Source: Enterobacteria phage CUS-3
Sequence record: FN394218.1
Length of the DNA stretch: 2,827 nucleotides
Reading direction: 5' to 3' (one strand)
Part shown: one piece after another, positions 1 to 1,762 of the stretch
Numbering within the stretch: position 1 is the stretch's first letter
How the letters are laid out: the number at the start of each line of letters is the position of its first letter
Translations under genes and position numbers: made by a program
The notes under the pieces: model-generated
The model's input: only the letters and a program-made list of their open reading frames with translations
The model's database searches: none
Told to the model about the DNA's origin: nothing

Positions 1-543
1 ATGGCGCGCCCAACAAAGTATCAAGAGGCGTATGCCGAACAGGCACGCAAACTGTGCTTGCTGGGCTACACCGATGCAGAGCTTGCTGATTTCTTCGAAG
101 TCAGTGAGTCAACTATTAACAAGTGGAAGCTTGATTATCCTGAGTTTTCGGAGTCCATAAAAAAGGGTAAGGCCGTCGCTGATGCAGAAGTTAGTGACCG
201 TCTTTATCAACGCGCTATGGGCTTCGTGGCTCCAGACATCGATATTCGTGTTATTGAAAACAGAATTGTCGAAACTCCTCTTGAGAAGTATTACCCGCCT
301 GATACAACAGCTGCCATCTTCTGGCTTAAGAACCGACAGAAGGATAAATGGCGCGACAAGGTTGATCACGAGCTAACAGGCAAAGACGGCGGCGCAATCC
401 AGATTGAAACATCACCGATGAGTACTCTATTCGGAAAANNNNNNNNNNNNNNNNNNNNNNNNNNNNNNNNNNNNNNNNNNNNNNNNNNNNNNNNNNNNNN
501 NNNNNNNNNNNNNNNNNNNNNNNNNNNNNNNNNNNNNNTCTGA
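1..543 (+). CDS. Phage terminase small-subunit-like helix-turn-helix DNA-binding protein; 3' end hidden in the N-run 439-538
   Basis: ATG at 1 opens frame 1 and reads without stops to 438 (146 aa visible): MARPTKYQEAYAEQARKLCLLGYTDAELADFFEVSESTINKW...AIFWLKNRQKDKWRDK. The N-terminal RPTKY motif followed by a predicted HTH (about nt 67-126) and the later AIFWLKNR..WRDK motif are, from memory, typical of HTH-type phage small terminase proteins. The TGA at 541-543 is in frame only if the N-run is exactly 100 nt of real sequence, so the true stop is uncertain. No similarity search was run. Confidence 0.55.
   Translation: MARPTKYQEAYAEQARKLCLLGYTDAELADFFEVSESTINKWKLDYPEFSESIKKGKAVADAEVSDRLYQRAMGFVAPDIDIRVIENRIVETPLEKYYPPDTTAAIFWLKNRQKDKWRDKVDHELTGKDGGAIQIETSPMSTLFGKXXXXXXXXXXXXXXXXXXXXXXXXXXXXXXXXXX
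439..538. other. Run of 100 N (masked sequence or assembly gap) between the terminase-like gene and the tailspike frame
   Basis: Directly visible. It starts on a frame-1 codon boundary and ends immediately before a frame-2 codon boundary. 100 N is a common convention for gaps of unknown size, but that cannot be confirmed here. Confidence 0.95.
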
Positions 544-1762
544 GCCATGTGTAAAATATTATGATGGCATTTTGTATCTGACGACCAGGGGGACATTAAG
601 TACTCAACCCGGTAGTTCATTGCACAGAAGCTCTGATTTAGGTACATCATGGAATTCTCTTCGCTTCCCAAATAATGTTCATCACTCAAACCTTCCTTTT
701 GCCAAAGTTGGCGATGAGCTGATTATTTTTGGCAGTGAGCGCGCATTTGGTGAGTGGGAAGGAGGAGAACCTGATAACCGTTATGCAGGAAACTATCCAA
801 GAACATTTATGACCAGAGTTAACGTCAATGAGTGGAGTCTGGATAATGTAGAGTGGGTTAATGTTACTGATCAGATTTATCAGGGCGGAATAGTTAACTC
901 TGCGGTTGGTGTTGGTTCAGTTTGTATCAAAGACAACTGGCTGTACTACATTTTCGGTGGGGAAGACTTTCTAAACCCATGGAGCATAGGGGATAACAAC
1001 AGAAAATATCCTTATGTTCACGATGGTCACNNNNNNNNNNNNNNNNNNNNNNNNNNNNNNNNNNNNNNNNNNNNNNNNNNNNNNNNNNNNNNNNNNNNNN
1101 NNNNNNNNNNNNNNNNNNNNNNNNNNNNNNNNNNNNNNNNNNNNNNNNNNNNNNNNNNNNNNNNNNNNNNNNNNNNNNNNNNNNNNNNNNNNNNNNNNNN
1201 NNNNNNNNNNNNNNNNNNNNNNNNNNNNNNNNNNNNNNNNNNNNNNNNNNNNNNNNNNNNNNNNNNNNNNNNNNNNNNNNNNNNNNNNNNNNNNNNNNNN
1301 NNNNNNNNNNNNNNNNNNNNNAGCGGCGGTGAAACAACGTCTTCAGCAGATGGTGCAATGATAACGTTGCATGGTTCCAGAAGCAGTACTCCACGTCGCG
1401 CGGTATATAACGCACTCGAACATCTTTTTGAGAACGGAGATGTTAAACCTTATCTTGATAATGTAAATGCTCTTGGTGGTCCGGGAAACAGGTTCTCGAT
1501 AGTTTATCTTGGCTCCAATCCTGTGGTTACCAGTGACGGAACATTAAAGACAGAGCCGGTCTCTCCTGACGAAACATTGCTGGATGCCTGGGGTGACGTC
1601 AGGTATATCGCTTATAAATGGCTGAACGCTGTCGCTATAAAGGGGGAAGAAGGGGCGAGGATACATCATGGTGTAATCGCGCAGCAACTTCGTGATGTTC
1701 TTATTTCTCACGGACTCATGGAAGAAGAAAGCACAACATGCCGCTATGCCTTTCTTTGCTAT
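539..1762 (+). CDS. Tailspike/tail-fibre protein fragment: sialidase-type beta-propeller segment followed by a C-terminal intramolecular chaperone (peptidase S74-like) domain; 5' and 3' ends hidden in N-runs
   Basis: Frame 2 has no stop in 539-1030 or 1322-1762. The upstream block translates to ...YYDGILYLTTRGTLSTQPGSSLHRSSDLGTSWNSLRFPNN...DNWLYYIFGGEDFLNPWSIGDNNRKYPYVHDGH and contains an Asp-box-like motif. The downstream block translates to ...NRFSIVYLGSNPVVTSDGTLKTEPVSPDETLLDAWGDVRYIAYKWLNAVAIKGEEGARIHHGVIAQQLRDVLISHGLMEEESTTCRYAFLCY, matching from memory the chaperone domain of endosialidases, K5 lyase and phage tail fibres. Frame 2 upstream of the gap (1-438) has stops, so the N-terminus is either missing across a gap or the gene is truncated. 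By analogy with roughly 150-aa chaperone domains the stop is expected near position 2000, inside the third N-run. Confidence 0.7.
629..652 (+). other. Asp-box-like motif (S-S-D-L-G-T-S-W) in the tailspike, suggesting a sialidase-type beta-propeller
   Basis: Codons agc tct gat tta ggt aca tca tgg fit the S-x-D-x-G-x-T/S-W Asp-box consensus of sialidase/BNR propellers. A single short motif is suggestive only. Confidence 0.45.
1031..1321. other. Run of 291 N inside the tailspike reading frame
   Basis: Directly visible. Length is a multiple of 3 and frame 2 is open on both sides, consistent with 97 hidden codons of the same gene. Confidence 0.9.
1532..1762 (+). other. C-terminal intramolecular chaperone domain of the tailspike (visible part), starting at a putative autoproteolytic Ser..Lys site
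   Basis: S-D-G-T-L-K at 1532-1549 places a lysine five residues after a serine, the spacing I recall for the self-cleavage site of endosialidase-type chaperone domains. Downstream family-like motifs include LDAWGDV and RIHHGVIAQQ (1658-1672 encodes RIHHG). Family assignment is from memory, not from an HMM search. Confidence 0.6.

Follow-up and report, generated by a model that had tools for sequence, protein, structure and literature searches.

The 2,827-nt stretch of DNA analysed here (record FN394218.1, Enterobacteria phage CUS-3; hereafter the window) is, with a probability of about 96%, a concatenated multi-locus typing record of the CUS-3 prophage and not a contiguous piece of genome, and the gene order that it appears to display is a product of how the record was constructed. 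This reading draws on the observed mapping of its parts onto complete genomes, on the observed distances between them and on their domain content. CUS-3 is a P22-like Lederbergvirus of E. coli K1, and the gene order of phage P22 together with the architecture of its gp9 tailspike serves as the standard of comparison. The prophage resides at tRNA-Arg and carries an endosialidase tailspike that recognises the K1 capsule (PMC3046976, PMC13001214). Its cargo gene neuO O-acetylates the same capsule and is phase-variable through slippage of an AAGACTC repeat (PMC3046976, PMC13001214).

The window contains four stretches of real sequence (1-438, 539-1030, 1322-1762 and 2180-2827, each carrying its gene on the plus strand) and three runs of N with lengths of 100, 291 and 417 (439-538, 1031-1321 and 1763-2179). 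The first stretch is the small terminase gene (terS) of CUS-3, complete apart from its stop: an ATG-initiated, stop-free frame-1 ORF of 146 codons, recognised by its identity to CP000711.1 and APEC O1 and by phrog_309. The second and third stretches are internal fragments of siaK1, the gene of the endosialidase tailspike. The fourth is neuO, encoding polysialic acid O-acetyltransferase, which lacks its stop and also its AAGACTC array between 2184 and 2185; it is assigned by identity to APEC O1 and by the Hexapep match of the full NeuO protein in Pfam. Segments 539-1030, 1322-1762 and 2180-2827 can each be read through in window frame 2 without meeting a stop. Because 291 and 417 are divisible by 3, the two siaK1 fragments and neuO all share this frame; for neuO, a separate gene, the agreement is a coincidence.

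The earlier note on this DNA had read the first kilobase as a terminase small-subunit-like gene followed, after a run of 100 N, by a tailspike, with frame 2 blocked by stops upstream of the gap, and each of these descriptions holds: terS is 100% identical to its counterpart in CP000711.1, the stretch at 539-1030 belongs to the CUS-3 endosialidase tailspike, positions 439-538 are exactly 100 N, and frame 2 of 1-438 contains three stop codons. The note had further pointed to a TGA at 541-543 that would overlap the tailspike frame. This TGA is present; it is a frame-1 triplet lying within the tailspike codons TCT GAG, and it has no biological meaning. The listed 180-aa ORF at 1..543 is simply the terS frame running through the Ns into this out-of-frame TGA.

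The segments were placed in two reference loci, the CUS-3 prophage of E. coli APEC O1 (locus L003; NC_008563.1, approximately 2,570,000-2,594,000) and the CUS-3 genome CP000711.1 from strain RS218, in which the segment ends were located by exact pattern search. Each of the four segments matches the APEC O1 chromosome at 100% identity: window 1-438 corresponds to L003 906-1343, 539-1030 to L003 20001-20492, 1322-1762 to L003 20784-21224 and 2185-2827 to L003 21920-22562. Against CP000711.1, the segments are 99.8-100% identical. The true gaps between them in APEC O1 measure 18,657, 291 and 417 bp, compared with 100, 291 and 417 N in the window. The flanks of the 100-N run lie at L003 1343 and 20001 in APEC O1, and in CP000711.1 they lie at 22268 and 4013, with 18,254 bp between them. 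The 100-N run is thus a placeholder that joins two non-contiguous pieces and stands for approximately 18.3-18.7 kb of phage genome.

In APEC O1, the 18,657 bp comprise 20 annotated CDS plus 1458 nt from the start of the tailspike gene (486 codons). The CDS in between include terL, the portal gene, the gene at the scaffold position, a P22-type coat gene, gp4-like and gp10-like genes, the genes for ejection proteins and arc/ant, among others. The genes are laid out likewise in CP000711.1, where 18 annotated CDS separate terS from siaK1. The real order in CUS-3 is the canonical one of P22-like phages, running from terS through terL, portal, scaffold and coat to the ejection proteins, arc/ant and the tailspike. 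The distances of 18,657 and 18,254 bp are unequal because the two prophages are not alike in the stretch from the ejection-protein genes to the tailspike (L003 14657-18442 versus CP000711.1 5572-8926). This stretch, a mosaic immI-like region, holds genes for a YafO-family toxin and a ClpP-like protease together with two Arc-family genes in APEC O1, and mnt, mnt, hkcB and hypotheticals in RS218. Both prophages possess terS, the endosialidase tailspike and neuO as in the window, with int and tRNA-Arg as neighbours; in APEC O1, neuO is followed by intS, tRNA-Arg (argW) and yfdC in this order. What they have and the window lacks is the 18.3-18.7 kb interval, tailspike codons 1-486, the 3' end of siaK1, the intergenic region and the AAGACTC array.

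Unlike the 100-N run, the other two runs have, to the base, the lengths of the corresponding intervals in APEC O1 and in the RS218 CUS-3. The 291-N filler at 1031-1321 has the exact length of siaK1 codons 651-747 (APEC O1 20493-20783; CP000711.1 3521-3231). The 417-N filler at 1763-2179 has the exact length of the siaK1 3' end and the siaK1-neuO intergenic region, from the end of the third segment to the neuO ATG (APEC O1 21225-21641; CP000711.1 2789-2373). Such agreement would also be expected if the Ns were masks laid over contiguous sequence by whoever prepared the window. This explanation deserves almost no weight, because the 100-N run fits no true distance (neither 18,254 nor 18,657 bp), because repeat sequence of 273 or 133 bp has gone with no N in its place, and because public sibling records have the same length of 2827 and the same feature coordinates, so that the Ns were already in the deposited records.

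The complete genomes also bear on whether terS and a shortened tailspike gene are ever neighbours. A set of 5,426 complete E. coli genomes was searched with window 1-1030 as the query and a joining distance of approximately 1 kb, such that a place where both flanks were joined would cover approximately 90% of the query. Among the 638 genomes that matched, the terS and tailspike flanks were found together in one place in none. The earlier note had asked whether the two flanks are contiguous in any known genome; among these 638 they are in none. Its description of terS as lying immediately upstream of a tailspike with no visible N-terminal domain is accurate for the layout of the record and fails for the genomes, where the two pieces are approximately 18 kb apart.

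The second option of that note is effectively refuted. It supposed a genuine CUS-3-like element, rearranged or defective, whose tailspike gene had lost its 5' part with the head-binding domain and followed directly on terS. The layout of the record taken alone would fit it, with the terS ORF reaching 438, 100 N, and a tailspike frame that starts at 539 without a start codon or N-terminal domain. Apart from the count of 0/638 genomes with the flanks within approximately 1 kb, the genome that is identical in all four segments has a separation of 18,657 bp and an intact 981-aa tailspike. Moreover, 17 sibling records from different strains have this 100-N join in common, with their genes annotated as partial, and a fragment beginning at aa 487, in the middle of the propeller, would lack a start codon. 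Window position 539 does not lie near a genuine 5' gene end in contiguous DNA, given that this position is codon 487 of an unbroken CDS and that no terS-siaK1 junction occurs in the 638 genomes. A narrower version, in which the source strain carries a deleted CUS-3 remnant with terS approximately 100 bp from the middle of siaK1 and the 100 N mark a true short unsequenced junction, has a vanishingly small chance of being correct.

The domain content of the tailspike agrees with a concatenated record. The APEC O1 tailspike is a protein of 981 aa encoded by an uninterrupted CDS (L003 18543-21488). Pfam assigns to it Head_binding (PF09008) at aa 1-113 (E = 3.8e-64), PF12218 at aa 146-212 (E = 2.9e-37), PF12217 at aa 213-662 (E = 1.2e-233) with an inserted PF12195 at aa 324-406 (E = 1.2e-46), PF12219 at aa 663-817 (E = 6.7e-78) and PF13884 at aa 818-878 (E = 2.8e-10). 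Only aa 487-650 and 748-894 of this protein are represented in the window. Window position 539 is codon 487 of the 981-codon tailspike CDS, and in CP000711.1 the frame upstream of this codon stays open back to an ATG at 5471. The fragment at 539-1030 (aa 487-650) is the second half of the catalytic beta-propeller and matches End_beta_propel (PF12217; E = 1.6e-104) over profile positions 192-355 of 367. The fragment at 1322-1762 (aa 748-894) contains the end of the stalk domain and the C-terminal intramolecular chaperone domain, with matches to End_tail_spike (PF12219; E = 6.4e-33) and to Peptidase_S74 'chaperone of endosialidase' (PF13884; E = 1.4e-11). Thus, siaK1 is truncated in the window on its 3' side as well as on its 5' side.

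The full tailspike has the head-binding domain that would be absent under the second option of the earlier note. This domain, of the P22 gp9 type, is common to the tailspikes of P22 and CUS-3. The two proteins differ in the receptor-destroying part, which is an endosialidase in CUS-3 (PF12218, PF12217, PF12195, PF12219 and PF13884) and an endorhamnosidase in P22.

The neuO segment also bears a sign of editing. The neuO repeat array is described as sitting two nucleotides past the start codon (PMC3046976). In the window, the AAGACTC array has been cut out at 2184/2185 (ATGTT|GTTTTCC) with no N to mark the place. The motif ATGTT stands directly 5' of the repeats in CP000711.1, and the pattern across 2184/2185 is absent from CP000711.1 by exact search, which exposes the deletion of the repeat. 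APEC O1 has 39 perfect AAGACTC copies (L003 21647-21919) and RS218 has 19 (CP000711.1 2235-2367); the sequence missing without any N thus amounts to 273 bp by the first genome or 133 bp by the second. The 39 copies of APEC O1 are divisible by 3, and its neuO, which begins 153 bp downstream of the tailspike CDS, is annotated as intact with 307 aa. Conversely, the 19 copies of RS218 are out of frame, and an annotation of a neuO CDS is absent there. Because the repeat has been removed from the record, the neuO of the window is an artificial in-frame '+0' allele.

The typing records FN394986-FN395002 in the phage collection show the same construction. These 17 siblings, all of exactly 2827 nt, derive from different E. 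coli K1 strains and match the window in four pieces with identical coordinates, including the same 100-N run in the same place; overall, they resemble the window in length, in the four fragments, in coordinates and in N runs, and differ from it at position 572. The title of FN394986.1 reads Enterobacteria phage CUS-3, partial proviral terminase / siaK1 / neuO genes, genotype GT_2. Its partial CDS features (1-438, 539-1030, 1322-1762 and 2180-2827) have the coordinates of the window segments, and 539-1030 is labelled as a partial siaK1 CDS. Over non-N bases, the window is 98.1-100% identical to the 17 siblings and differs from FN394986.1 in a single base, position 572, where the window has T and FN394986.1 has C. 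This substitution is synonymous (TTG/CTG, Leu). All 17 siblings and the RS218 CUS-3 have C at 572, and the window alone among these has T. In complete genomes, the T allele was seen in 17, including APEC O1 and several O1:K1:H7 and O2:K1:H7 avian isolates, a distribution that suggests a CUS-3 genotype specific to one lineage. Since the phage collection contains no sequence that matches the whole window at 100%, the window is taken as one more allele or genotype in this series, probably GT_1.

The siblings also help to judge the other option of the earlier note, a scaffold join of unknown size with the tailspike N-terminus hidden in it. This option is essentially correct. The run does hide sequence, namely the 18,657 or 18,254 bp between the flanks, the N-terminal codons included; what does not stand is its origin as an assembler's scaffold gap, as opposed to deliberate concatenation. 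A scaffold from whole-genome assembly would account for the number 100, the conventional count of Ns for a gap of unknown length between ordered contigs, and reference-guided scaffolding could produce the other two runs at reference distances. Assembly is nonetheless a very unlikely source. The fragments end at CDS starts or last sense codons, the neuO repeat is cleanly gone without Ns, and 17 strains share one record length and one set of boundaries under a title that speaks of 'partial' genes and a genotype GT_n. Besides, skipping 18 kb of single-copy phage genes while keeping exactly one CDS is not how assemblers behave.

The small terminase deserves separate comment. Window 1-438 is 100% identical to CP000711.1 22268-22705(-), within the CDS 22265-22705 annotated as 'phage terminase small subunit' (ECRS218_0022). 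In APEC O1 the corresponding CDS is L003 906-1346, of which the window copy comprises the start codon to the last sense codon. In both genomes terS lies directly upstream of terL and overlaps it, by 4 nt in APEC O1 (906-1346 and 1343-2758) and likewise in CP000711.1 (22265-22705 and 20853-22268). The protein matches phrog_309 'terminase small subunit' in PHROGs (E = 2.1e-68). A search of the protein against Pfam gave nothing, and NCBIfam gave nothing above threshold and only a sub-threshold match to an IS630 HTH. Its C-terminal 38 aa align to the small terminase gp1 of Sf6 (PDB 4DZJ/4DYC/3HEF; E approximately 6e-11 in a PDB sequence search), whereas its N-terminal part has no match to Sf6 gp1 by phmmer. 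The close likeness covers aa 109-146 (window 325-438), where GKDGGAIQIETSPMSTLFGK is identical in both proteins. This sequence comparison points to a mosaic TerS that may share with Sf6 gp1 a tail presumed to interact with TerL. The CUS-3 protein is not P22 gp3-like, and its C-terminus resembles Sf6 gp1.

Annotation of this gene varies among records. In the RefSeq entry of APEC O1 it is labelled 'hypothetical protein', and in several phage records (MN340231.1, ON470589.1, ON470594.1) the matching feature is named 'HNH homing endonuclease', which is probably a mis-annotation. Near-identical terS DNA is found in Klebsiella phage phiKp_30 (97%) and Salmonella phage NM-3 (94%).

As a concatenated typing record, the window would have been made by pasting four separately sequenced partial pieces (terS, two of siaK1, and neuO) in a fixed order with N padding. 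The 100-N run would be an arbitrary spacer between loci approximately 18 kb apart in the phage, and the 291-N and 417-N runs would be length-preserving fillers for unsequenced parts of the contiguous siaK1-neuO region. The hypervariable heptanucleotide repeat of neuO would have been excised to allow alleles to be compared. The fragment ends fall on CDS boundaries, with terS running from its ATG to the last sense codon and neuO likewise with its repeats cut out, and these CDS-exact ends together with the repeat excision argue for curated editing rather than assembly. From the titles and annotation of the sibling records, the fragments appear to be PCR amplicons of a typing scheme. Its likely source is the work of Mordhorst et al. 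2009 (Environ Microbiol 11:3154-3165, PMID 19671077), a population study of CUS-3 and neuO with genotyping of the prophage, which PMC13001214 and PMC3046976 cite.

Since the record was built by concatenation, a terminase gene beside an N-terminally truncated tailspike is not a biological arrangement in CUS-3. The terS, endosialidase tailspike and NeuO of this phage are already well characterised, and nothing new about these genes follows from the window. The wider meaning is a caution for the reading of short public 'phage' records: runs of N in them can join loci that are tens of kilobases apart, and sequence can also have been removed from them unmarked, as was the phase-variation repeat of neuO. 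Anomalies of gene order or truncation read from such N-joined records are not biological.
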